The position numbers and the translations under genes were made by a program. Positions 1-10,632 of a DNA stretch of 10,632 nucleotides are shown piece after piece. Below the pieces are notes generated by a model. It saw only the letters and a list, made by a program, of their open reading frames with translations, was not told the origin of the DNA and did no database searches. Location of the stretch: positions 1 through 10,632 of the IMG/VR virus record IMGVR_UViG_2675903650_000012; one strand, written 5' to 3'. How positions within the stretch are numbered: the first letter of the stretch is position 1; every line of letters starts with the position of its first letter. This stretch comes from a virus. Lineage: Duplodnaviria; Heunggongvirae; Uroviricota; Caudoviricetes.

Positions 1-164
1 CCGGAAGTTACAGGACAATGGCAGGAGGAAAACTACAGCCCGCAATACGAAAAAGGCCACGCAGTTGCGCAGCCTTATGAATTCTGGTTAAAATCCATTC
101 GATTATAAAAATGTATATCTCATGCTGTTGCCCGAACCCACTCAGGCTTTTTTTTGCCCACAAG

Positions 165-395
165 AAAGCCCCTCCGGAGAGGGGCTAAAGCCGCGTATCT
201 GTATCATCATGCACATGGTGCCGGGTGCCTCCCGGTGAGTTCAGCCCGGTGCCACTAAACCCGCGTCATTCTCGTTTTGATAATCAGAAATTATACCGTC
301 ACCAGTCGCCCCTCCGCTCAGGGGGATTCACCATGCGAAATTTTTTTAACAAATGCCCAGTCTGACAGGCAACTGTCAACTTACTGAATTGTGAG
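165..395. repeat. Structured repeat module, copy A: GC hairpin (168..185), ~120-bp imperfect palindrome closed by catggtg/caccatg (214..336), and conserved downstream blocks
   Basis: Identical or near-identical blocks shared with copy B: aaagcccctccggagaggggct; catggtgccgggtgcctcccggtgagttcag; gcccctccgc(t/a)cagggggattcaccatgc; ttttaacaaa; ca(a/g)c(t/a)gtcaac; ctgaattgtgag. The sequence between blocks has diverged. Confidence 0.6.
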
Positions 396-430
396 CAACA
401 TAGCATTTAACGGGGAACCTGTTTTCTGCA

Positions 431-459
431 GTAAAAAGGCCCACCGGAGCGGATGGGCC
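431..459 (-). terminator. Candidate rho-independent terminator on the minus strand, between the two repeat modules
   Basis: Stem ggccca/tgggcc (438..443 / 454..459) with a 10-nt loop; on the minus strand the hairpin is followed by a run of five T (complement of A 433..437). Confidence 0.45.
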
Positions 460-651
460 TGGAAGGATAGCGGTCATGTGATGCCGGTTTCCCGGTAACT
501 CAGCACCGGTATCTGAGTCAACGTTTTCTCTACTGGGTCATTTCCGATACGCCCTGCCTGCTGACAGGCTTTCATCACATCTGAAAATATAGCACCCTGA
601 CTGATACTGTAGTACCCAAGGTTCCAGAAACTGTGATGTATCCGGCACAGA

Positions 652-878
652 AAAGCCCCTCCGGAGAGGGGCTGGAGAGTGGCGCTATGTGCCATTGCAT
701 GGTGCCGGGTGCCTCCCGGTGAGTTCAGTATCAGCACCTGAACCCGCACAGAAAGGATAAGGGTCGGTGACAAAACACCAGTTGCTGATTGCCCCTCCGC
801 ACAGGGGGATTCACCATGCCAGTTTCTTTTAACAAACTCCCCGCAAACCAGACAACAGTCAACCGCCTGAATTGTGAG
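652..878. repeat. Structured repeat module, copy B (paralog of 165..395): hairpin 655..672, palindromic core 698..819
   Basis: Same ordered conserved blocks as copy A with different intervening sequence; the gttcag...ctgaac hairpin is perfect here and has one mismatch in copy A. Confidence 0.6.
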
Positions 879-1002
879 GTATTTAAAAATTTCAACGGGT
901 AACTGATACCCTGCTAATCGCCTGATGCTTTCTTTTTCAGCAACGGGAAAGCAACAACCACCACACCCACCAGCCGCCCATTTACCACAAATAAAAAATC
1001 CT

Positions 1003-1200
1003 TCACTGCGGAAGGCGTCTGTAACAACCGAACTGATAGTCTGCCAGACCCGCCATAACCAGCTGGGTCAGTATTAACTGGCAGCGTTCGCGTGAAAGGT
1101 AAGTATTCTGCGCAATCTCCCCGACTGTCGCCGGTTCGGTGGCACTTAATTCATTAAACACCACTCTGGCGGTTTCTGTCATATCCTGCTGTTTTAGCAT
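1003..1200 (-). CDS. Small hypothetical protein (65 aa) with an HTH/winged-helix-like segment, downstream of Q
   Basis: Taken from the internal ATG (MLKQQDMTETARVV...) of the 1003..1293 ORF, preceded by a purine-rich gggaaaaagac; the upstream GTG start in the track lacks an RBS and would overlap the terminator region. The segment ATVGEIAQNTYLSRERCQLILTQLVMAGLA resembles a DNA-binding HTH. Confidence 0.45.
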   Translation of the reverse strand: MLKQQDMTETARVVFNELSATEPATVGEIAQNTYLSRERCQLILTQLVMAGLADYQFGCYRRLPQ

Positions 1201-1320
1201 GTCTTTTTCCCTTTTCCGGTTAACGTGACACACCAATAACTCTTGTCGAAAAAGCCAGCAAGCTGAAAGACCGGTATTCACCACCACCAGCACGTTTACT
1301 GTACTGATGCGATTTCAGTC

Positions 1321-1347
1321 ATAAAAAACCCGCCAGGCGGCGGGTTT
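1321..1347 (-). terminator. Strong intrinsic terminator directly downstream of Q (tR'-like position)
   Basis: Perfect 6-bp GC stem cccgcc/ggcggg (1329..1334 / 1339..1344) with a 4-nt loop; on the minus strand it is followed by six T (complement of A 1323..1328). It lies ~60 nt after the Q stop codon. Confidence 0.65.
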
Positions 1348-1404
1348 AAGTTGTGTGGCGTAGTAACCACTCTTAACATACTGACATACTTTTTGCGGAC
1401 CGCG

Positions 1405-1797
1405 CTAATCATTTTTTACTTTTTTGGGCAGCCAGTCGTCCATCTCCAGCCTTACACCCAGCATCGACAGACATCCGTCAATAAATCCTTCAGCAATCTG
1501 CATCTCAATTCGTATTGCCTTTTCGCTCTTCTTTCTTGTTCTGGCAATCTGCCTTTTTGATATGCGCAGCAGATAATGAGCTACCAGCAGCGAATACTCG
1601 TCCGGTTTTTTCTTCTTCAGGCGCGTAAGGCAGTTTTCGATGATAAGGCCGTCATCATCGCTGCAGGCCGGGCGAGGTTTAGCGGTGGATGGTAAAAGGC
1701 CTTTAAATCCAGCAGCTATCGGAGAATAGTCCACCCCGGCGTTACCACTTGCCGCCCATGCCCCCCAGCGTTCGAGAACCATCTGAATATCACGCAT
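1405..1797 (-). CDS. Q: Late-gene antitermination protein Q (QuuD/phage-21-type Q family)
   Basis: Translation from the ATG at 1797 (MRDIQMVLERWGAWAA ... RLEMDDW...), with GGAG 7-10 nt upstream; the track start at 1812 is a TTG. The N-terminus and the ~130-aa length match my memory of E. coli cryptic-prophage Q proteins (QuuD-like). It is the last gene of the nin-region operon. Confidence 0.7.
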   Translation of the reverse strand: MRDIQMVLERWGAWAASGNAGVDYSPIAAGFKGLLPSTAKPRPACSDDDGLIIENCLTRLKKKKPDEYSLLVAHYLLRISKRQIARTRKKSEKAIRIEMQIAEGFIDGCLSMLGVRLEMDDWLPKKVKND

Positions 1798-1814
1798 CAA
1801 CTTTCTCCACAAAA

Positions 1815-2810
1815 TCAGGACAGCACACCAATCGCCAGCGCGCGATCGATAAAACGAAATATCAGCTCCAGCTGGGAGCCATACTTCTCTTCAAATGCCA
1901 CGGTATCCGCATGCAGCTCGTCGTGATGCTTTCTGCACAAAGGCAACACAAAGAGGTCATGCGCTTTTGTAGCCATTCCACCCTGACCGTGACCTATCAG
2001 GTGGTGGGGATCATCAGCAGGCTTTCCACAACATGCGCACGGCTGCGTCTTAACCCAGCGCGTGTACTTTTCATTAACCCAGCGGCGACGTTTTGGGCGT
2101 AACATAAAAGACTCCGGCGACTCCGGATCCACTTTCAGCGCCAGCACCTTTTTCGCTTTATCCCGGATAATACTGGTGGCGGGAACCGAAGGCACAAGGT
2201 CACTTTCCCGGGTGACAGACGGCACAACCGTCTTCGGTAATCTCAGTACCTTACGGGCTGCACTTTCCGGTAAGGCATCCGCCAGGTCATTACGAATCAG
2301 CCACCAGCACAGTTCCGGCATTGTCACAACGTGACTGTCATCAAAACCGAGATCCCGACGCACAACAGACAACACCCAGCGGGCACAGTTATCCGTTGCC
2401 ATTGATTCCAGCCGTTCCGTGAACTGATCGCGCAGCTGGTTATCGCAGTGCCAGCACAGACGGATTGCGCCCGGAGCGTGTCGCATTGTGGTCATGTTCT
2501 CGCTGTGCCATCCGGAATGAGGCCACTGGCAGCCTTTTTCACGAAGTAACCAGCTTTCAAGACATTCCACGCCACCAGCACGACGGATCACTGCCTCATG
2601 GCGGAACACGGACCGAACGGCAGGATCATCCGCCAGCGGTTGTGATGCCGCCGGAACGGCACCACTGGCGAAAGATGAATAACGCTCCGGCTCAGGCTCC
2701 AGCAGGACACGCCCCTGCATAAACAGGGGCATCAGCTCTGAACCTGGCCTGAACAATACGATCCCCATACGCGGGGCAATTTCAGGGGTCAGTAGTGCTC
2801 TCACAGTCAC
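1815..2810 (-). CDS. DUF968-like phage protein (YdfU-like) with a C-terminal Cys/His zinc-finger or HNH-like motif
   Basis: 331-aa ORF; C-terminus CACCGKPADDPHHLIGHGQGGMATKAHDLFVLPLCRKHHDELH (C-x2-C ... HH ... C ... HH ... H). It sits immediately upstream of Q, as ydfU does in Qin-like prophages (from memory). Start uncertain: GTG at 2810 or GTG at 2804 behind a GAGG. Confidence 0.7.
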   Translation of the reverse strand: MTVRALLTPEIAPRMGIVLFRPGSELMPLFMQGRVLLEPEPERYSSFASGAVPAASQPLADDPAVRSVFRHEAVIRRAGGVECLESWLLREKGCQWPHSGWHSENMTTMRHAPGAIRLCWHCDNQLRDQFTERLESMATDNCARWVLSVVRRDLGFDDSHVVTMPELCWWLIRNDLADALPESAARKVLRLPKTVVPSVTRESDLVPSVPATSIIRDKAKKVLALKVDPESPESFMLRPKRRRWVNEKYTRWVKTQPCACCGKPADDPHHLIGHGQGGMATKAHDLFVLPLCRKHHDELHADTVAFEEKYGSQLELIFRFIDRALAIGVLS

Positions 2811-2811
2811 C

Positions 2812-3627
2812 TCAATGAACGGTATCGAGCAGCTTTAACAGCTCAGGAAATCGGGATTCGAAGAAATGCGGCTGCGTCTCGCGCGGATTTGCAGGACTGG
2901 TGATGTTCTTGCCGAACATGCAGCCTTTCGCGGTCAGCGACCAGAATTTTTTGATGTTGTTAATCGCGGTACGGCTGTATCGTTCGCGTTGTTCAACGAT
3001 CCCCAGCTTCGCCATCTGGTGATATGCCTGATTAGCCGTCAGGCGGATACCATACTGCTTCAGCAGTGCACTCAGCGACAGCGTAGGGCGGCTTGAACCA
3101 TCTGGCGCATCAGCAGGTGCATCAATGGCATAGATCGGCATAAGTTCAGGAAGACCAGCTACCTTTGATAATTTCTGGTATGCACCAAGTTTCGAGGAGT
3201 TTGACAGATTTAGAGTCTTTGCTGCTGATTCAAGCAGAATGACCCCGGATTTAATTTTGTCGGATGTGGTTTCTTCTGGTGATGAATTATGAAGCGCATC
3301 AAAAGTACGTATCACTTTTAAGCTGAATGCCGGGCTGATCCACATTGCATATGCATAGACCAGCTCTTTACAGACATACGTCCCACCATTGCGCCCCTGA
3401 ATGGTGATGACAGGAATACTACGGGAATCTCCCGTAGTTTCTTCTTCCAATAATTCCACAAGAGCCTTCGTTTCAGGACGACGCATAAACTCGTGAACTT
3501 CCAGCGAACGGGAGGAGCGATTCTCACCAGCGGCAAGAAGAGCAGCTTTCTGAAGGTCGTTAAGACAGTAGTTAGATTCGAAGTACTGGCGCACAGAAAC
3601 GCCATCAATTACAAGCAACTGATTCAT
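2812..3627 (-). CDS. KilA-N domain protein
   Basis: Translation from the ATG at 3627 (MNQLLVIDG...), with GGAG 7-10 nt upstream. KilA-N hallmark GGTYVCKELVYAYAMWISPAFSLKVIRTFD. The C-terminal half (from about residue 150) is a separate, unassigned region. Confidence 0.75.
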   Translation of the reverse strand: MNQLLVIDGVSVRQYFESNYCLNDLQKAALLAAGENRSSRSLEVHEFMRRPETKALVELLEEETTGDSRSIPVITIQGRNGGTYVCKELVYAYAMWISPAFSLKVIRTFDALHNSSPEETTSDKIKSGVILLESAAKTLNLSNSSKLGAYQKLSKVAGLPELMPIYAIDAPADAPDGSSRPTLSLSALLKQYGIRLTANQAYHQMAKLGIVEQRERYSRTAINNIKKFWSLTAKGCMFGKNITSPANPRETQPHFFESRFPELLKLLDTVH

Positions 3628-3724
3628 TGGTTTCTCCACAAATTTTTATCCACGAGCGGGACTGCACTCCCTTTTCGTTGATGCAGGATGAACTTACTGC
3701 GATTTTTAATAGTTATCAAGGATA

Positions 3725-3744
3725 CACTGTTCATAAATACAGTA
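3725..3744. promoter_or_regulatory. LexA-box-like palindrome (SOS-box candidate) upstream of the KilA-N/DUF968/Q genes
   Basis: CACTGTTCATAAATACAGTA: CTGT (3727..3730), an 8-nt AT-rich spacer, ACAG (3739..3742); 16 of 20 positions match the consensus TACTGTATATATATACAGTA as I recall it. Flanked by GATAC (3721..3725) and GTATC (3742..3746). Lies in the 160-bp gap between rusA and the KilA-N gene. Confidence 0.4.
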
Positions 3745-3789
3745 TCTTTAACGAGGTAATACCCAAATTTAGGGTGTTGCTCAATTCCG

Positions 3790-4185
3790 TTACCGAGTTG
3801 CTAATTTGCAACTCGCTTTTTCGTACTTACTGATAGTGATCTCGACCTTCCCTTCCGGGATAACCGGTCCCCACTCCACCAGCATTCTTTTCACCTGGCT
3901 GTCGTCTTCCCACACACCCGCGTGGGTCAGGGCGTCAAACAGCGCCTTGTTATAGTTGTCCAGATCGCGGATCCGGTTATCCGGAGGAAACAACACGATC
4001 TCCACTGAAGCAGGTGCCGACGTTGGTTTCGGCAGACGACGTAACTGCTCAACTATTGCTGCACACGCCGCGCTCTGGAATTTTCGCCCCGCCGCGCTTA
4101 TCAGGCTCTTACCAGCAAACGCCCCTTTGTTGGGGTGTCGCCAGTACGTGTTCACGCTGGGCGGAAAAGGCAGTATTAGCTTCAT
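3790..4185 (-). CDS. rusA: Crossover junction endodeoxyribonuclease RusA (Holliday junction resolvase)
   Basis: 131 aa; N-terminus MKLILPFPPSVNTYWRH resembles RusA (...LPWPPSNNRYYRH) and the catalytic-region motif RIRDLDNYNKALFDAL is present. The ATG overlaps the upstream stop (ATGA). Confidence 0.9.
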   Translation of the reverse strand: MKLILPFPPSVNTYWRHPNKGAFAGKSLISAAGRKFQSAACAAIVEQLRRLPKPTSAPASVEIVLFPPDNRIRDLDNYNKALFDALTHAGVWEDDSQVKRMLVEWGPVIPEGKVEITISKYEKASCKLATR

Positions 4186-4835
4186 GCCACCATCTCCCTG
4201 ACCAGTTTTTCCGCCTGCTGGCGAACCTGCGCCAGAAATGCCTCACCACATGCCTCAAGTTCATCGCGCCCGATGTAGCTGATTGCCGGTCCCTTCCAGG
4301 TCTTGTCGAAAACAGCAATAGCACCAGCGAAGAAAGCACCTGTTGGCACCTGCTTTTCGTCTTTCGGGATAAACCAGGCAGGCAGTTCAAAACCAATACG
4401 CCCGCGAATAAAAGCAATATGATCTGCATCTTCCGGCCACCACACTTCGCTGGTGGCAGCTTTGATCAGGAAAACATAGCGCCCGCCTTTATCACGCATG
4501 GCAGTGGCATGCTTCATGATGTAACGCATGCCGGTGATGTATTGCCCCTCATGCTGACTGGCGCGGCTGTACGGGGGATTGCCAAAGGCAGCACCTTTAA
4601 GCTCCGCAAGACGTTCTGACCAGTCATGCGCCAGCGCGTTGTCTTCCGCCGTGTAATACGCGGCACATTTGGCGTTATCACCGTCAGTGAACAGATCCAG
4701 AACAAACGGACCAAACAAGGTGTTAATTCCCCAGAAAATGTTATCCGGCGTGCGCCACTGATCTCCCACTTCCTTCAGTTCATGGGCTGGTTTATTCCGC
4801 AGTTCCACCAGCGCCTGGCAATATTTATTACTCAT
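4182..4835 (-). CDS. Phage DNA N6-adenine methyltransferase (Dam-type)
   Basis: 217 aa; NPPY catalytic motif (AAFGNPPYSRA); typical nin-region methylase of lambdoid phages. Start ATG overlaps the stop of the upstream 30-aa ORF (TAATG). Confidence 0.85.
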   Translation of the reverse strand: MSNKYCQALVELRNKPAHELKEVGDQWRTPDNIFWGINTLFGPFVLDLFTDGDNAKCAAYYTAEDNALAHDWSERLAELKGAAFGNPPYSRASQHEGQYITGMRYIMKHATAMRDKGGRYVFLIKAATSEVWWPEDADHIAFIRGRIGFELPAWFIPKDEKQVPTGAFFAGAIAVFDKTWKGPAISYIGRDELEACGEAFLAQVRQQAEKLVREMVA

Positions 4836-4927
4836 TAAGCCCCCACGTAAAAAGCATCCGCAATGTCTCCGGAAGTACAGCCAGGATGGGCTTCAATGAA
4901 TTTCTGAACTTCATTCAAAAGACTCAT
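4835..4927 (-). CDS. Small ORF (30 aa, MSLLNEVQKFIEAHPGCTSGDIADAFYVGA), hypothetical
   Basis: Not in the ORF track (too short). Strong SD AGGGGGTG 5 nt upstream of the ATG; its stop overlaps the methylase ATG (TAATG) and its start lies 2 nt after the O-like stop. Confidence 0.35.
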   Translation of the reverse strand: MSLLNEVQKFIEAHPGCTSGDIADAFYVGA

Positions 4928-4929
4928 GA

Positions 4930-5913
4930 TCACCCCCTGAATCCTGCCGGAATCTGGCTGTAGTCCACGTTGTCGTAACTGGCTTTGAAGTACGGGTCCT
5001 CGCGTCTGGCTGCAGATACCGCAGGAACTTCCCAGGATTCTTCGAAATGACGATCCGGACCAAAGAACGTCGACGCCTGCTTCACGAACTGGGTACCGGT
5101 ATTTCCAGAGACACGCACCCAGGCGGCATAGCGTTTCACACCGTCGAGCATGGTTTCGGGTGTCACACCTTCCCTGATTCGGGCTTTCCAGGCTTTAAAA
5201 GCGGCGGATTTTGAATTACCACCAGCACGTTTGGGATATTCCTGCCAGGCCTGTTCAAATTCCGGTGAATATTCCTGTCGGGCAGAACGCGCTGGCGCAG
5301 ACGCGTCAGCGGATGCATCAATAGTGTTTTTAGTCTCCGTTGTAATCTCTGTAGTAATCTCTGTATTTGTATCAACATTCAGCGTATCCCCTGTTCCGTT
5401 ATGACGTCGGGGGGTGTTCCGTTTTAACGTAATAGCTGTATCGCTGATTGCATTATTGCTGTTACTTTCTGGCGAAACAGAAGAAGGTGTGGTGATGGCC
5501 GCAATTGCCTGTGGGTTGATCCCGACAAACAAAATATTGCTGCATTTCACCCCATCGAGCATTTCCACCGTGCGTAAATCCAGAGTAATAAACCCTGCAT
5601 CGCGCAGACGCTTCAGCGCATCTGCGGTTTCCCTTTTCCCGAAACCAAACTGCTCAGCAAACGCCTGGTAGCTTCTTTGCAGTTTGTCGCCCTGAAAACG
5701 CTTGCGATATCCCAGCAACGCTCCGGTGTGCTCATCCCTGACCTCTGTCGGGCGGTACCAGTAAACGATCTCTGAAAGCAGAGCGATAGCCGTCGCATCC
5801 GGACGCCCACTGGGTAGTCGAATATATTTCCACCAGTTCGCAGGTGTAACATTGCCGGAAATATTAATTTGACCAATAGCCATAACTTCCGGTGTGGGGG
5901 CGTAACGGCTCAT
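4930..5913 (-). CDS. Phage replication initiator / replisome organizer (lambda O-like), with iterons inside the gene
   Basis: 327 aa; N-terminal region (...IVYWYRPTEVRDEHTGALLGYRKRFQGDKLQRSYQAFAEQFGFGKRETADALKRLRDAGFI...) resembles DnaD/replisome-organizer N-domains. A central linker (TEITTEITTETKNT, ASADASA) is encoded by direct DNA repeats, as ori-lambda lies within O. Confidence 0.65.
   Translation of the reverse strand: MSRYAPTPEVMAIGQINISGNVTPANWWKYIRLPSGRPDATAIALLSEIVYWYRPTEVRDEHTGALLGYRKRFQGDKLQRSYQAFAEQFGFGKRETADALKRLRDAGFITLDLRTVEMLDGVKCSNILFVGINPQAIAAITTPSSVSPESNSNNAISDTAITLKRNTPRRHNGTGDTLNVDTNTEITTEITTETKNTIDASADASAPARSARQEYSPEFEQAWQEYPKRAGGNSKSAAFKAWKARIREGVTPETMLDGVKRYAAWVRVSGNTGTQFVKQASTFFGPDRHFEESWEVPAVSAARREDPYFKASYDNVDYSQIPAGFRG
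5333..5380. repeat. Candidate origin iterons inside the O-like gene
   Basis: tagtctccgttg / taatctctgtag / taatctctgtat / ttgtatcaacat: tandem 12-bp units, with two exact gtaatctctgta copies at 5342..5353 and 5354..5365. Confidence 0.5.
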
Positions 5914-6209
5914 ACAACCTCCTTCCGCGGCATGAGAATTGTGTAGCCACGCGCAGGTTGTAGTCTGGCTTTTGCATCAATAGTAAGCGTTGCAATTTTT
6001 CGGATATGAAGATAACCAGCTCTTTCCAGTGCCAGGGTTTCCCTGAATATCGCTTGCTTAGAACAACAGCAGAAATCAGCAAGCACCTGATGATCAATAA
6101 CTCTCTCGCCTTCACCGTCTGAAGAACCCGACATCAAAACACGCAACATAATCAGGCGCTGAATCGGGTTATCGAAAGCACATCCGCACACAAACTGAAA
6201 ACAGTTCAC
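5910..6209 (-). CDS. Hypothetical protein (99 aa), translationally coupled to the O-like gene
   Basis: Stop overlaps the O-like ATG (ATGA at 5910..5913) and start overlaps the upstream stop (6206..6209). Cys-rich (CGC, CCC); a possible HTH at QAIFRETLALERAGYL. Confidence 0.5.
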   Translation of the reverse strand: MNCFQFVCGCAFDNPIQRLIMLRVLMSGSSDGEGERVIDHQVLADFCCCSKQAIFRETLALERAGYLHIRKIATLTIDAKARLQPARGYTILMPRKEVV

Positions 6210-6430
6210 GCCACACCTCCCAGACGCTTAAACATTTTTCCGGAGCAAAAGGCTATAAGCGGCATACTGATGCGGTAATTACGGCCCAGCGGTTCACAAA
6301 TCACCTTCTGACATTCACGGTCAACCAGGCTGACACGTAGAACATGCCCTGCAGGCGTGGTGTACCACTGACCAGGACGAGGACAACGGAAAGTCTGATT
6401 GGTAAACCGTTTGAAAATATTCCGGATCAT
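6206..6430 (-). CDS. Hypothetical protein (74 aa)
   Basis: ATGA overlaps with both neighbours; same strand and operon context. No family recognised. Confidence 0.45.
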   Translation of the reverse strand: MIRNIFKRFTNQTFRCPRPGQWYTTPAGHVLRVSLVDRECQKVICEPLGRNYRISMPLIAFCSGKMFKRLGGVA

Positions 6431-7587
6431 TTGCGCCCCCTTACCTCTGAAGGGTTCAGCGACAAATTTATGAGACTGGCCAGTAGCGCCGCGTCGTTGA
6501 TGCGGTCATACAGACTTACAGCCAGCGGGGATTCGGCTTTTGCCAACATGGGATAAAGCTGCTGCAGCCAGACCTTGTGGATTACCGACAGGTGGGAGTA
6601 AAGCACGCTGGCGTTATCTGCGGCATCGCTCAGCGTGGATGGCTTTGAAAGCAGTTTTTCCATCTGGTTAAAGGCATTGATGTATGCCTCTTTGAACCGG
6701 GCAGCACGTTTACCCGTGAAACCCATAGCAAGAAACGCAAAACCGTCTCGTGTGATTTGATAGCAAGGGAGCTTGCGTGTACCACCGTTCGGTTGATTTA
6801 CCGAAATCGATGTCTCCGCAAAATTGCGGGCACAAAACTCTGGGGAACAATCCAGAGTGCGGATCTTTTTCAGCACATCGTCGTGACGCTTGGAGAAGGA
6901 GTTGGCAACAGCCAAAGAAGTGGTAACGGCCTGGCCGTTGTCAATGGTGATTTCAGGTTGAGTGAGGGCTGGGATCGTAGCCATGATGGCAGCCTCCGTT
7001 GACAGTGAAAAACTTCCACCACCGGAAACGCCAATTTCACTGGTGGTGAACTGGACGGGGTTGGCGTAACCGGCGTCAACGGAGACCGGCGCACCTTTCG
7101 GTGCCCCCGCCCAGCCCACCATAATCTGGATGTGAGCAAATGCGGACGATAAAAAAGACGCTGGCGCGTCATACATCGCCGTTGACAATTTCAGGACGCC
7201 AATCCCGGCACCCGCTTTATAAGGTGCCTGAACAGTGTAACGTCCCGGAATGGCAGAATCAATGTGCTGGTGGTCCTTCACACTCAACAAAATCACGCCT
7301 GAATTTCCACAAAGGACTAAAGCACTCATGCTGGTAGTCTTTGCGAAGATAGATAACGCGCTGTGTTTCTGGCTCCCAACGAATAACATGAACATAAAGT
7401 CCTCTTCCGTCACGAAACCAGCGGTTAAGTTCCTGCACAACTCGCCCCCCACAGTCAGGTAAAGTTCTCTGTGGTTACTTACAGCCAGGTGATTTGGTAA
7501 TCTGCATTCATGCCGTAACAACAGGTGTTCAGCGACGCTGACCACCAGCTGTTGCGACAAACGGTTATTTGCCGTTAAACTATTCAT
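6427..7587 (-). CDS. Rha-family phage regulatory protein with a ~200-aa N-terminal extension of unknown function
   Basis: Residues ~205-320 (MATIPALTQPEITIDNGQAVTTSLAVANSFSKRHDDVLKKI...YQITRDGFAFLAMGFTGKRAARFKEAYINAFNQMEKLL) match the Rha N-terminal domain. The ORF continues in frame ~200 aa upstream (Gly-rich linker VSGGGSFSLS) and its ATG overlaps the stop of the CII-like gene (ATGA at 7584..7587). Confidence 0.65.
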   Translation of the reverse strand: MNSLTANNRLSQQLVVSVAEHLLLRHECRLPNHLAVSNHRELYLTVGGELCRNLTAGFVTEEDFMFMLFVGSQKHSALSIFAKTTSMSALVLCGNSGVILLSVKDHQHIDSAIPGRYTVQAPYKAGAGIGVLKLSTAMYDAPASFLSSAFAHIQIMVGWAGAPKGAPVSVDAGYANPVQFTTSEIGVSGGGSFSLSTEAAIMATIPALTQPEITIDNGQAVTTSLAVANSFSKRHDDVLKKIRTLDCSPEFCARNFAETSISVNQPNGGTRKLPCYQITRDGFAFLAMGFTGKRAARFKEAYINAFNQMEKLLSKPSTLSDAADNASVLYSHLSVIHKVWLQQLYPMLAKAESPLAVSLYDRINDAALLASLINLSLNPSEVRGRK

Positions 7588-8153
7588 GCGTTAGTTTCTC
7601 CACAACCAGAAGCAATCGACGCCACGACGCCCGGAGCTGCACACTCGCGGGCGTTACTATTTTCTGGAGCGCAGAAGATTTTGTAGACCAGTGCTGCATG
7701 CTCCTGGAGCTTCGAAATTGAGAGGTACAGCTCGTCGTTAATTGCTGTCTTCTCATGCGGTTCCACTACACCGTCTTCGATTGCTGAACGAATCTGTCTG
7801 GAATAACTGCCGATCTGTTCAATGACTTCCAGCAGACGCTGGTTAATATCGGCGTTGTCCACATCCTCGACGTCAGGAAGAGACACAAAGACGCCATTTG
7901 CAGACTGCGCCACAGCGTCAGCAATGAAGTGAGTTCCACCAGCACGTTGTAAAATCATTGCCCATCCCAGCGGGAAAATCTGATCGCCATCGGCACGAAG
8001 GCGATTGAATAAAGCGTTCTCTGTTACATCCAGCCACTCAGCAGCTTCAGCGTAACCCCCCGGCAACGCCGCGATAGTTTTTCTGACAGCTTTCACGTAC
8101 CACTCAGGCTGTTTTTCTACTTTCCAGTGATGCTTACCCACGGTTAGCCTCAT
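7584..8153 (-). CDS. Putative CII-like / YdaT-like regulator (189 aa)
   Basis: Second gene after the Cro-like gene, the usual CII/YdaT position. Putative HTH GGYAEAAEWLDVTENALFNRLRADGDQ. No SD is visible upstream of the ATG (cagaacg ATG). The family assignment is positional and weak. Confidence 0.5.
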   Translation of the reverse strand: MRLTVGKHHWKVEKQPEWYVKAVRKTIAALPGGYAEAAEWLDVTENALFNRLRADGDQIFPLGWAMILQRAGGTHFIADAVAQSANGVFVSLPDVEDVDNADINQRLLEVIEQIGSYSRQIRSAIEDGVVEPHEKTAINDELYLSISKLQEHAALVYKIFCAPENSNARECAAPGVVASIASGCGETNA

Positions 8154-8184
8154 CGTTCTGTGGTTAAAAATTGAAGGTGTTCTG

Positions 8185-8385
8185 TTAATCTTTCGGATAG
8201 ATATCCGGTCTTAAGTCAGATTTCGTAATTGCACCTGACGTGCATTGCTCAAGTTTTTTAGCCAGCACAAAACTGGCTTTTTTATAACCATTGAAAACCA
8301 GCCGTAAGTAGCCTGGTGTTGAGCCAACTTTTCCGGCCAACTCGCCCTGCTGTTCTTTGGTTAAAGAGTCCCAATACGCTTTCAT
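8185..8385 (-). CDS. cro: Cro-like HTH regulator (YdaS-type, 66 aa)
   Basis: Translation from the internal ATG at 8385 (MKAYWDSLTKEQQGELAGKVGSTPGYLRLVFNGYKK...LRPDIYPKD), with GGAGG ~10 nt upstream. The C-terminus (...TKSDLRPDI) resembles YdaS (...CEELRPDI). The longer 167-aa ORF would begin upstream of the predicted pR start site and overlap the operators. Confidence 0.7.
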   Translation of the reverse strand: MKAYWDSLTKEQQGELAGKVGSTPGYLRLVFNGYKKASFVLAKKLEQCTSGAITKSDLRPDIYPKD

Positions 8386-8390
8386 ACAAT

Positions 8391-8470
8391 ATGTACCTCC
8401 GATATACATATTACATGATTGAGATGAACCTTCAAGATACTTGTACCCTATCGGTACAAAGGTTTTAATT
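8391..8470. promoter_or_regulatory. Divergent switch region (OR-like): candidate pR (minus), candidate pRM (plus, leaderless cI), and two 19-bp operators
   Basis: Operators ATGTACC-tccga-TATACAT (8391..8409) and the perfect palindrome TTGTACC-ctatc-GGTACAA (8441..8459). Candidate pR on the minus strand: -35 TTGAAG (8430..8435), 16-bp spacer, -10 TAATAT (8408..8413). Candidate pRM on the plus strand: -35 TTGTAC (8441..8446), 17-bp spacer, -10 TTTAAT (8464..8469), placing the start site at or next to the cI ATG (8476). Confidence 0.5.
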
Positions 8471-8475
8471 TCGTT

Positions 8476-9150
8476 ATGAAAACAGTCCATGACATCCGGC
8501 GGTCTAACGCCAGAAAACTGAGAGATGGTGTTGGCGGGAATTCTTCCTTTGCCACCATGATTGATCGCGAGCCAACCCAGACCAGCAGGTTTATGGGAGA
8601 TGGTGCTACTAAAAATATCGGTGACAGCATGGCACGGCACATCGAAAAATGTTTCGACCTGCCTGTCGGATGGCTTGATCAAGAACACCAGACAACAAAC
8701 ATCACAAAAAAACCTGATGTTTCAATTACTAACAAACAAATAACGTTAGTCCCTGTCATATCATGGGTACAGGCCGGAGCATGGAAAGAAGTTGGCTATT
8801 CTGAGGTTGATTTGAGCACAGCAGAAACTTATCCCTGCCCTGTACCCTGTGGCGAAATGACTTATATCTTGCGGGTGATTGGTGATTCAATGATTGATGA
8901 GTACCGCCCGGGAGACATGATTTTTGTAGATCCTGAAGTCCCTGCCTGCCACGGTGACGACGTTATTGCATTGATGCACGATACAGGCGAAACCACCTTT
9001 AAGCGGTTGATAGAAGATGGAACACAGCGTTACCTCAAAGCATTAAACCCAAACTGGCCTGAACCTTACATTAAGATCAACGGTAATTGCTCTATAATTG
9101 GCACAGTAATTTTCTCAGGAAAACCAAGAAGATACAAAATAAAGGCCTAA
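8476..9150 (+). CDS. cI: CI/C2-type prophage repressor (HTH N-domain plus S24 LexA-like autopeptidase C-domain)
   Basis: 224 aa; C-domain LVPVISWVQAGAWKEV...VIGDSMIDEYRPGDMIFVDPEV...TFKRL...LKALNPNWPEPYIKINGNCSIIG closely resembles P22 C2 / lambda CI. Catalytic Ser (GDSM) and Lys (TFKRL) are present, as is an Ala-Gly candidate cleavage site (VQAGAW). Confidence 0.9.
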   Translation: MKTVHDIRRSNARKLRDGVGGNSSFATMIDREPTQTSRFMGDGATKNIGDSMARHIEKCFDLPVGWLDQEHQTTNITKKPDVSITNKQITLVPVISWVQAGAWKEVGYSEVDLSTAETYPCPVPCGEMTYILRVIGDSMIDEYRPGDMIFVDPEVPACHGDDVIALMHDTGETTFKRLIEDGTQRYLKALNPNWPEPYIKINGNCSIIGTVIFSGKPRRYKIKA

Positions 9151-9161
9151 TCAATATTTAT

Positions 9162-9185
9162 AACCTGCTTCGGCAGGTTTTTTTA
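9162..9185 (+). terminator. Intrinsic terminator of the cI transcript
   Basis: Stem aacctgc/gcaggtt (9162..9168 / 9173..9179) with loop ttcg, followed by a T run through 9184; begins 12 nt after the cI stop. Confidence 0.7.
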
Positions 9186-9188
9186 TAC

Positions 9189-9221
9189 TTGACAATGTAC
9201 CCTTGAGATACATAATGTATC
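9189..9221 (+). promoter_or_regulatory. pL-like promoter with overlapping operators
   Basis: -35 TTGACA (9189..9194), 16-bp spacer, -10 CATAAT (9211..9216). Operator ATGTACC-cttga-GATACAT (9195..9213) has the same architecture as the two OR sites; a perfect 15-bp palindrome GATACATaATGTATC (9207..9221) overlaps the -10. Confidence 0.6.
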
Positions 9222-9633
9222 TAAAAGAAACATGTCACAGGCAAGATTAAACAAAATTTGGTTGTAACACGGCGTATGGCACATGCGTCGTTAGCGGTCT
9301 GGGGACGTTAAAGGGGACAATCCACTCCTTGCTCGGGCAAACAAACCAGGTAGCCGGAATGTGCAAGTCAATGAGGATGCTGATAAGACGCCTAACCAGC
9401 GTGGCGATTCGGTTTGACGCCTGGGAAGAGACCAGGGTGCAACGATGAGGGCATTTATGGAACCGCGACAAAGTATGGTGCCGTAACTGGCTAAGTGCTC
9501 TCAGCGTTGTGGTAATCCGCGAAATGGCGCGGCGGTAAGTATGGCGGGGTTATTCCTTCCCCGTTGAGGACACCGGGTTGTCAGGTTGACCATACGCTTA
9601 AGTGACAAGCCCACCACAACAGCCACTGCTTTG

Positions 9634-9679
9634 GCGGTACCAGTTTGTACACTTGCTTCCGGCTGGTACCGCTCTTTTT
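9634..9679 (+). terminator. Strong intrinsic terminator inside the long leader downstream of pL
   Basis: Perfect 10-bp stem gcggtaccag/ctggtaccgc (9634..9643 / 9663..9672) with a 19-nt loop, followed by tcttttt (9673..9679). Confidence 0.6.
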
Positions 9680-9816
9680 ACAAAACAGAGAAGAGCATCA
9701 CCGGACGACGGGCTCATAACCCAATCCACCCGGGCGGCTGCCACCGCAGGTGTTCTTCTCTGTTTTGTGGAGAAACCAACCGACCTTGCAGGGTCGATAT
9801 GATGAGGAGCAGCAAA

Positions 9817-10179
9817 ATGGCTAGCGAACGCAGTACTGATGTGCAGGCATTTATCGGGGAGCTGGACGGCGGCGTATTTGAAACCAAAATCGGCGCTGTT
9901 CTCAGTGAAGTCGCTTCAGGTGTGATGAACACGAAAACCAAAGGGAAGGTCTCGCTCAACCTGGAAATCGAACCGTTTGATGAGAACCGTGTGAAAATAA
10001 AACACAAACTCTCATATGTTCGTCCGACTAACCGCGGGAAAATTTCCGAAGAAGACACCACCGAAACGCCGATGTATGTCAATCGCGGTGGTCGCCTGAC
10101 TATTCTGCAGGAAGACCAGGGACAATTACTGACTCTTGCCGGTGAACCTGACGGAAAACTCCGCGCAGCAGGTCATTAA
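9817..10179 (+). CDS. Hypothetical protein (120 aa), first gene of the pL-side operon
   Basis: Translation from the ATG at 9817 (MASERSTDVQAFIGELDGG...), with strong SD GAGGAG (9804..9809) 7 nt upstream. The upstream in-frame extension to 9586 runs through the terminator hairpin and begins at a TTG. Acidic, with no Arg-rich motif, so not N-like. Confidence 0.6.
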   Translation: MASERSTDVQAFIGELDGGVFETKIGAVLSEVASGVMNTKTKGKVSLNLEIEPFDENRVKIKHKLSYVRPTNRGKISEEDTTETPMYVNRGGRLTILQEDQGQLLTLAGEPDGKLRAAGH

Positions 10180-10244
10180 TATCGTTCTTAATTAACTGAT
10201 TATTTATCTCATCACTGAATATCTTTATATAGTGAGGACTTATT

Positions 10245-10628
10245 ATGTCTCAGAACTTAGACGCAACCGCAATTAATCAAATCCATGCCCTTATTTCTGC
10301 GCAGGGTGTTAATGAAATTATCAGTAAGATTGGTGCCGATGCTGTGGCATTGCCTGAGAATTTCCGCATTCATGATCTGGAAAAATTTAATTTAAATCGC
10401 TTCCGTTTCCGTGGTGCGCTTTCCACTGCCAGCATCGATGACTTTACCCGTTATTCTAAAGATCTTGCAGATGAAGGCACCCGCTGCTTTATCGATGCTG
10501 ATAATATGCGTGCCGTCAGTGTGCTTAACCTGGGTACTATTGATGAACCAGGTCACGCAGATAACACCGCCACTCTCAAACTGAAAAAGACAGCACCGTT
10601 CTCTGTGTCAACGACGGATGAAAAGTGA
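10245..10628 (+). CDS. Hypothetical protein (127 aa)
   Basis: Complete ORF from ATG to TGA, with SD GAGGA ~7 nt upstream (agtgaggacttatt ATG). No family recognised. Confidence 0.6.
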
Positions 10629-10632
10629 TCCA

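Follow-up and report, generated by a model that had tools for sequence, protein, structure and literature searches.

What do the first genes behind the left early promoter of a lambdoid prophage encode, and do they serve the phage or the lysogen that carries it? We addressed this question for a 10,632-nucleotide (nt) stretch of Caudoviricetes DNA (IMG/VR record IMGVR_UViG_2675903650_000012, positions 1 to 10,632; hereafter the window), in which two open reading frames (ORFs) of 120 and 127 amino acids (aa), ORF1 and ORF2, lie beside the immunity region. According to an initial annotation made from the sequence alone, both match nothing recognizable and occupy the N/rex-equivalent position, where cargo for superinfection exclusion, anti-restriction, host takeover or defense is common. 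The claim that they have no relatives did not survive database searches: ORF1 encodes YfdP (PF27127, phrog_204), and ORF2 derives from yfdQ, whose product belongs to DUF2303 (PF10065, phrog_210). Taking all evidence together, we consider it very likely that the region is the start of a pL operon, in which a structured leader precedes an intact yfdP and a yfdQ interrupted by an insertion sequence (IS), two genes that otherwise form a fixed pair. In this respect the finding is already known, as yfdP and yfdQ are catalogued, functionally obscure prophage genes standing in their usual place.

Identity and setting of ORF1 and ORF2

ORF1 (9817-10179, + strand) is an intact yfdP gene. Its product is 99% identical over 100% of its 120 aa to the RefSeq 'protein YfdP' cluster (Pfam PF27127) and matches PHROG 204 over residues 1-119 (E=1.2e-49); the RefSeq annotation yfdP also underlies the DNA match of ORF1 in relatives. 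A profile search retrieved the YfdP family as 521 clusters at 50% identity, nearly all of 100-130 aa, and ORF1 belongs to this family of single-domain proteins of ~110-125 aa. No match to YfdP was obtained in our Pfam scan, the copy of Pfam scanned being without PF27127, or in NCBIfam, and a sequence search of the PDB returned only noise (E~0.2). A longer form of YfdP starting from a TTG at 9586 (197 aa) was rejected: the extension overlaps conserved RNA hairpins, is rich in Cys and Arg, and is absent from annotated as well as homologous proteins.

ORF2 (10245-10628, + strand) matches Pfam DUF2303 (E=4.9e-41, 141 bits against a cutoff of 26.6) and phrog_210 (E=2e-49), yet it covers only positions 2-119 of the 269 in the DUF2303 profile, i.e., 44% of the domain. 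Intact YfdQ has 274 aa, and DUF2303 proteins, of which a family search returned more than 600 clusters, measure 270-280 aa (~269 profile positions). All database alignments of the locus end at position 10605. In the alignment with two intact yfdQ genes, identity is perfect through ...CCGTTCTCTG, and the sequence beyond 10605 is unrelated. Residues 1-120 of ORF2 are identical to those of intact YfdQ, and residues 121-127 (VSTTDEK, followed by the stop codon) are IS-derived. The last 27 nt of the window (10606-10632), TGTCAACGACGGATGAAAAGTGATCCA, are found as exact 27/27 copies at 54 loci of a species-representative genome set, ~50 of them in Yersinia pestis NCTC5923 and the others in Escherichia and Citrobacter. 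The Y. pestis copies are followed by genes matching the NCBIfam models of the IstB helper (E=2e-140) and the IstA transposase (E=5e-96). Judged by these exact copies and their neighbors, TGTCAACGACGGATGAAAAGTGATCCA is the end of an IS21-family element, which we take to be IS100, a known multicopy IS21-family element of Y. pestis. The window ends inside this element, 27 nt from its border, and the contig looks to have been broken at the repeat.

Consisting of codons 1-120 of YfdQ and seven foreign codons from the IS end, ORF2 is, on this alignment, a truncation product, or pseudogene fragment, of yfdQ (10245-10605, codons 1-120 of 274), which belongs to DUF2303 by descent and is not intact. The truncated product would be without 154 of the 274 YfdQ residues, including most family-invariant positions, e.g., E137, W138, R166, P202, and R237. 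The initial annotation had treated ORF2 as a gene of 127 aa, and its Shine-Dalgarno sequence, ATG and in-window stop codon would indeed suit a genuine small protein, a naturally short variant of DUF2303. But the last seven codons and the stop codon fall inside the 27 nt shared with the multicopy IS21-family end, residues 1-120 are exactly those of a 274-aa protein, and less than half of the Pfam domain is present. We also did not find the yfdQ::IS junction in 5426 complete Escherichia coli genomes. In an IMG/VR scan with a YfdP alignment, which returned only 100%-identical copies and hence is good for allele counts and of no use for covariation, 71 of the 79 loci with identical YfdP have the 274-aa yfdQ and none (0/79) the 127-aa form. 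A naturally short DUF2303 protein is therefore effectively refuted already, and we assign it a negligible likelihood. As for the event that truncated yfdQ, we infer an insertion of the IS, as opposed to an IS-bounded deletion or a rearrangement; counting against this part of the reading, the rest of the element and the sequence beyond it lie outside the window.

The setting of both genes agrees with their assignment to the early-left operon. ORF1 and ORF2 start with ATG and are preceded by Shine-Dalgarno sequences, GAGGAG at 9804-9809 (7 nt upstream) and GAGGA at 10234-10238 (6 nt upstream), and the spacer between them (10180-10244) is 65 bp long with a GC content of 24.6%, in accord with the good ribosome-binding sites and the compact AT-rich gap described initially. 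They lie on the same strand as, and downstream of, a gene for a cI-like prophage repressor of the LexA/Peptidase_S24 family (8476-9150, + strand; Pfam Peptidase_S24, E=1.5e-26), which defines the immunity region and the counterpart of which in relatives bears the RefSeq label 'LexA family protein / ymfK'. The repressor transcript is closed by an intrinsic terminator (9162-9186, + strand) found by a scan, with a 7-bp stem (9162-9179) followed by a T-run. Directly behind it lies a pL-like sigma-70 promoter (TTGACA, 16 nt, CATAAT; 9189-9216, 11/12 consensus positions), which together with a palindrome occupies 9189-9221 of the + strand. This perfect 15-bp palindrome, GATACATAATGTATC (9207-9221), overlaps the -10 region, and a relative of it with three mismatches is located at 8383-8397, between the repressor gene and a cro-like gene; the two are probably operators of the cI-like repressor. 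Phage Ayreon carries both elements in its deposited annotation, the terminator and the promoter standing at the positions that correspond to 9162 and 9189 of the window. The opposite strand carries the cro-like gene, the cII-like ymfL, a Rha/antirepressor-like gene, replication genes, and genes for a methyltransferase, RusA and the Q antiterminator.

The order of repressor, terminator and promoter, together with the genes on the opposite strand, makes the label of a pL or N-equivalent position correct, as was originally proposed: ORF1 and ORF2 are the first protein genes after a repressor-controlled pL-like promoter. We found no convincing protein gene in the interval between the promoter and ORF1, and therefore coding on the pL-type transcript begins with the two ORFs. 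They are not, however, its first segment, since a structured non-coding leader of ~600 nt with its own terminator intervenes.

This arrangement is widespread. When the 1483 nt from 9150 to 10632 were used as a query against the 5426 complete E. coli genomes, some part of them was matched in 4792 genomes, and at least 80% (the leader, yfdP and the 5' part of yfdQ) in 1174. Many E. coli chromosomes share positions 9150-10605 with 98-99.9% identity, as do phages cdtI, Ayreon, 2H10 and mEp460 and Stx2c phages, and in these the genes are annotated as yfdP and yfdQ. The early-left (pL) operon of the prophage begins here, and the prophage itself is a common lambdoid one of E. coli type, of the same kind as cdtI, Ayreon, mEp460, ST64B and LLS. 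In intact relatives, the operon comprises yfdP, yfdQ (274 aa), yfdR, which encodes a YfbR-like HD 5'-deoxynucleotidase, further small genes, and int. Thus, the ORFs proved to be largely what the initial annotation had contrasted with novel genes, namely very common members of the early-left gene repertoire.

The yfdP-yfdQ pair and its possible role

We examined 13 divergent loci (two from Serratia, one each from Salmonella, Klebsiella, ST64B and LLS, and seven distant metagenomic loci), and in every one of them, as in the window with its 65-bp gap, yfdP stands directly upstream of a same-strand DUF2303 gene. YfdP of the Serratia, Salmonella and Klebsiella loci shows 59-62% identity. In the seven distant loci, which come from soil, marine and other metagenomes, the gaps between yfdP and the DUF2303 gene range from -8 to +7 nt, often with overlapping stop and start codons, which indicates translational coupling. 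Such constant adjacency along with frequent coupling argues that yfdP and yfdQ form one cassette. In turn, the third gene varies and may be yfdR, a gene for a DnaJ-domain protein, or erf together with yqaJ; the conserved unit is therefore the yfdP-yfdQ pair and not yfdPQR, and yfdR is no fixed part of the cassette, which is independent of it. In one Salmonella prophage, kil and abc2 come before the pair, which is placed deep inside the early operon. The co-occurrence of the two genes across prophages, which the initial annotation had proposed to check, is thereby confirmed, while their description as cargo does not hold, as they make up a conserved, tightly linked cassette and not a variable load.

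At the protein level the two partners appear distinct, a profile-profile comparison of YfdP with YfdQ having revealed no relationship. The AlphaFold2 (AF2) model of YfdP (predicted local distance difference test score, pLDDT, 74) consists of an N-terminal helix packed against a three-stranded meander. The most conserved part of the protein, its tail EEDTTETPMYVNRGG...QEDQGQL, has low pLDDT values in this model and may therefore fold upon binding. For a YfdQ homologue, an experimental structure has been deposited as 'YfdQ Protein' (PDB 9o7m), which the family profile matches over 268 residues (E=2e-56). The entry contains 36 chains of one sequence, and this chain count, on which alone we rely here, implies that YfdQ is a large homo-oligomer. 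We found no paper on 9O7M, or on YfdQ in connection with cryo-electron microscopy. Homology searching and structure prediction, which had been recommended for the two ORFs, thus led to named families, but to no structural or defense-system homology that would give a function.

The only functional data come from E. coli K-12, where yfdQ-yfdR-yfdS-yfdT were isolated as a multicopy suppressor of the over-initiation phenotype of hda-185 (Noguchi and Katayama, 2016; PMC4776307). According to this work, multicopy inhibition of DnaA-dependent initiation needs yfdQ, yfdR and either yfdS or yfdT, and YfdR binds DnaA at Phe46, in competition with DiaA and DnaB. The authors also cite yfdQ mutants as being sensitive to hydrogen peroxide (H2O2) and methyl methanesulfonate (MMS), and deletion of yfdQ or of the prophage CPS-53 as altering stress phenotypes. 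In another study, production of YfdQ led to plaque formation by another resident phage (bioRxiv 10.1101/413146). In a 2025 survey of lambdoid early-left operons (PMC12315714), yfdP and yfdQ are described as common genes of unknown function, for which a role in recombination is unlikely.

We tentatively propose that after induction YfdP and YfdQ would act together, probably as a complex, and that, joined by YfdR in enteric phages, they may constitute an early host-takeover module. Such a module would perturb the initiation of host replication, through the interaction of DnaA with DiaA and DnaB, as well as nucleotide metabolism, in favor of the phage. Its expression would require read-through of the terminator in the leader, and we further infer that RNase III might cleave the adjacent hairpin. 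We rate the chances of this proposal at somewhat short of even, and several observations weigh against it. The only functional assay gave its effect without any need for yfdP, the replication phenotype appeared on multicopy overexpression only, and deletion of yfdQRST had no effect on initiation (PMC4776307). There is no direct evidence for any activity of YfdP, and its complex with YfdQ is our proposal. Furthermore, the cassette often occurs without yfdR, and elsewhere stands beside genes for DnaJ-domain, Erf/YqaJ or Kil/Abc2 proteins, so that its primary role may be unrelated to DnaA. Whatever the role, in the prophage studied here the module is most likely inactive and only YfdP could still be made, given the truncation of YfdQ and an IS that would come between the promoter and downstream genes or exert polarity on the latter.

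A position next to the immunity region often hosts genes that guard the lysogen against other phages, such as rex, sieB and other morons, and a role of YfdP and YfdQ in defense or superinfection exclusion would also fit the altered stress phenotypes upon deletion of yfdQ or CPS-53 (cited in PMC4776307) and the effect of YfdQ on another resident phage. However, no family of the PADLOC-DB v2 hidden Markov models matched YfdP, full-length YfdQ or YfdR at E<=0.1. Genes behind a repressor-controlled promoter and an intrinsic terminator should, moreover, be silent in a lysogen, and the pair is a core cassette spread over many genera (521 clusters for one of its families, more than 600 for the other), which in Salmonella is found well within an early operon, behind kil and abc2. 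We therefore regard a defensive function as very unlikely. Of the functions initially envisaged for this position, host takeover receives partial support from the work on DnaA (PMC4776307).

The early-left operon is likewise the home of phage recombination (Rec) modules, and yfdP-yfdQ could represent an accessory module for recombination or protection of DNA ends, e.g., an unrecognized annealase or mediator, or an anti-RecBCD function. Consistent with this are the neighbors found elsewhere (Erf with YqaJ, Kil with Abc2), the large oligomer apparently formed by YfdQ, as by many annealases, the reported MMS sensitivity of yfdQ deletion (cited in PMC4776307), and the case of phage LLS, which has yfdPQR and no recognizable Rec module (PMC12315714). 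Yet the same survey that deems such a role unlikely points out that the cluster is also present in phages with complete, separate Rec modules (PMC12315714). Besides, with isoelectric points (pI) of 5.7 for YfdP and 5.0 for YfdQ, the proteins are only mildly acidic and therefore unlike DNA mimics. On balance, a recombination role seems unlikely, if less so than defense, and what probability remains falls to other early functions such as anti-restriction.

The host-takeover module thus stays our working proposal for the proteins. What matters more generally is that yfdP-yfdQ ranks among the commonest lambdoid early-gene cassettes that are without a mechanism, in spite of a solved YfdQ structure and a published link to DnaA, and that the only functional study left yfdP out. 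Our analysis adds that the two genes are an obligate, often coupled pair far beyond enterobacteria, and that they merit joint study.

The modular leader upstream of yfdP

The promoter is separated from yfdP by a leader of ~600 nt (9217-9816), which contains no tRNA or tmRNA and has no Rfam match at E<=5. Long gaps in front of yfdP also exist in ST64B (815 nt), LLS (628 nt), Klebsiella and Serratia. The leader is modular, and it is the most interesting part of the region, although it lies outside the interval that the initial annotation had considered. No N-like protein is encoded in the window, within which no search was aimed at N homologues, and Q, which is late, was the single antiterminator detected. 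yfdP must therefore be reached by transcription that runs past the terminator in the leader.

This terminator is located at 9633-9679 (+ strand) and consists of GGCGGTACCAG...CTGGTACCGC followed by TCTTTTT. It lies directly upstream of the last leader module and aligns with the terminator half of the DicF RNA of PhiR42_1, i.e., it matches the 3' half of DicF, the 5' seed being missing. A hairpin and T-run of different stem sequence are kept in ST64B, LLS, Klebsiella, Serratia and SKA5. From this alignment, the element appears to be a remnant of DicF retained as a terminator.

Next to the terminator lies the leader module that we call C (9680-9768, + strand), in which ~20-25 bp pair perfectly to form a stem, capped by a branched loop that is conserved (GACGGGCUCAUAACCCAAUCCA). 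Its folding energy gives a z-score of -5.3 relative to shuffled sequences, 9 of 32 pairs show compensatory changes across six sequences, and G-U pairs occur on the + strand only. In Serratia the stem has an entirely different sequence and equal length, so pairing is kept from E. coli to Serratia. Module C is found upstream of yfdP in 75 of the 79 IMG/VR loci, and in phage SKA5 it directly precedes yfdR, without yfdP or yfdQ. By analogy with the leader of lambda N, it is a candidate RNase III site beside the ribosome-binding site of yfdP. A small hairpin predicted by minimum free energy folding (9781-9796, + strand) lies between module C and this ribosome-binding site, and a hairpin of different sequence occupies the same place in relatives.

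The upstream half of the leader is formed by two further modules. Module A (9256-9512, + strand) is a conserved non-coding, RNA-like element of ~250 nt that is 78-82% identical to the DNA of P7 and P1 between tRNA-Ile and ban. Counterparts with identities in the same range are found just upstream of tRNA-Arg in a Uetakevirus and in the leader of a Klebsiella prophage. Among four sequences, 10 of 39 predicted pairs are compensatory, and the module has no Rfam match. Module B (9506-9620, + strand; ~115 nt) is predicted to be a closed structured domain made of a closing stem P0, hairpins P1 and P3, helix P2 and a pseudoknot helix P4. In this hand-built structure, 93% of the cells are paired as compared to at most 56% in slid controls, and seven pairs are changed on both sides; since the structure was derived from the same sequences on which it was scored, these figures are optimistic, and supportive rather than conclusive.

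Module B, which has no Rfam match either, is present in at least 119 IMG/VR contigs, and its normal place is directly 5' of DicF. A near-invariant core is found in PhiR42_1 (Rac/Qin-like) directly before the Rfam DicF hit. In P1 and P7 it follows immediately on Pban, a promoter under C1 control, and the annotators of P1 noted a 'dicF-like region' there; in Actinobacillus phage vB_Apl-pPE4 it lies, with 84.5% identity, between a DicA-like repressor gene and kil. Among the 119 module-B loci, the module is followed by the DicF seed in 70 and by yfdP/yfdQ in 15, and nearly always by a terminator-like hairpin. For non-coding DNA, it is striking to see an enterobacterial-type module B retain so much identity in a phage of Pasteurellaceae. 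In vB_Apl-pPE4, the DicF-like segment and terminator behind the module are tandemly duplicated (2105-2295 of the stretch compared).

Sequence comparison thus suggests that the leader holds at least two structured RNA domains outside Rfam 15, modules A and B. It may be asked, then, whether RNA is the main functional product of the locus, the pL leader serving as a regulatory or antiterminating RNA, or as a precursor of a small RNA, and yfdP and yfdQ being its passengers. The conservation of modules at 78-93% in phages devoid of yfdPQ (P1/P7, Rac/Qin-like phages, the Actinobacillus phage, Uetakeviruses), the covariation backing helices in all three modules, the direct succession of module C and yfdR in SKA5, and the frequency with which a DicF seed follows module B all speak for such an RNA. 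Against it stand the strong conservation of YfdP and YfdQ as proteins, with which a protein function is compatible, the optimistic statistics of structures derived in part by hand from the sequences scored, and the fact that no experiment ties the modules to any activity. We consider an RNA with passenger genes possible but rather doubtful, and retain a protein role for the yfdP-yfdQ pair.

As the leader terminator has to be passed and no N-like gene was found, a cis-acting RNA mechanism like that of the put RNAs of phage HK022 is conceivable. Carried to its furthest extent, the idea would be that modules A and B modify RNA polymerase or RNA processing in cis and without the help of a protein, which would permit terminator read-through in N-less lambdoid phages as a second widespread put-like system, alongside YfdP-YfdQ as a dedicated two-protein complex for replication takeover. 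We offer this combination as speculation and think it improbable as a whole. If the leader does control terminator read-through, this would explain early-left expression in lambdoid phages without N. Independent of its mode of action, a conserved modular RNA leader with a built-in terminator, parts of which recur in P1, Rac/Qin-type, epsilon15-type and Pasteurellaceae phages, is added here to the known picture of the operon.

Other RNA elements were noted on the opposite strand. Two Rfam families, C4 antisense RNA (81 bits) and IsrK (62 bits), match back to back at 7039-7227 (- strand), inside an ORF at 6427-7587. They fall in the N-terminal half of this 386-aa ORF, which RefSeq labels 'Rha family phage regulatory protein' in relatives. 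The segment looks like an immI (c4/ant) module of the P1 type, and the N-terminal part of the 386-aa ORF is therefore probably over-annotated. Two tandem copies of the STnc100 small RNA family (156-365 and 643-848, - strand; 166 and 141 bits) lie in the late-leader region, downstream of the gene for antiterminator Q (1405-1812).

Relation to known systems

The closest system with functional data is the cluster yfdP-yfdQ-yfdR-yfdS-yfdT of the cryptic K-12 prophage CPS-53 (KpLE1), which contains the same families in the same order and is the only one studied experimentally (PMC4776307). In the window, by comparison, yfdQ is cut by the IS after codon 120 and the downstream genes lie outside the stretch. 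Yet, unlike the decayed CPS-53, this type of prophage keeps its immunity region, promoter and leader intact. The full order of repressor, terminator, promoter, long leader, yfdP, yfdQ and yfdR is shared with ST64B (sb37/sb36/sb35), LLS (gp39/38/37), cdtI, Ayreon and mEp460, all of which differ from the window in having a full-length yfdQ. Module C is common to these phages, whereas their leaders are mosaic, some with and others without modules A and B.

In lambda, transcription from pL reaches N before any other gene, after a structured leader that includes nutL and a long RNase III-sensitive hairpin beside the ribosome-binding site; downstream expression depends on the passage of terminators. 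The resemblance of yfdP to N is positional only. YfdP, which is not arginine-rich (pI 5.7), belongs to a different family and shares neither sequence nor fold similarity with N. No boxA/boxB was noted in the leader, at which no dedicated search for these elements was directed.

The DicF/dicB operon of Qin/Rac-type prophages (RF00039) offers a parallel for the location of the terminator, which in both cases belongs to an early operon under repressor control, within its leader or an intergenic stretch. In contrast to DicF, the 5' seed TTTCTGGTGACG, which pairs with ftsZ and other targets, is deleted in the window, and only TTGGCGGTACCAGTTT... and the terminator are kept. The Rfam DicF model, which scores 76.7 bits with DicF of PhiR42_1, gave no match in the window at the gathering threshold (48 bits), nor at E<=5 over 9100-10300. 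With the seed absent and the model unmatched, the element is not a functional DicF. The two operons also diverge downstream, as the terminator of the window is followed by module C and yfdP instead of dicB.

The put RNAs of HK022, a lambdoid phage without N, are cis-acting processive antiterminators situated just after the early promoter and before terminators (PMC9378689). In a blastn comparison of the whole window with positions 22,000-30,000 of HK022, a stretch in which the presence of putL is unconfirmed, no similarity was found. What the two leaders share is the concept of a structured RNA placed between an early promoter and the terminators that follow, while module B is larger than put (~115 vs. 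~70 nt) and, given its closing stem and pseudoknot, is predicted to be built differently.

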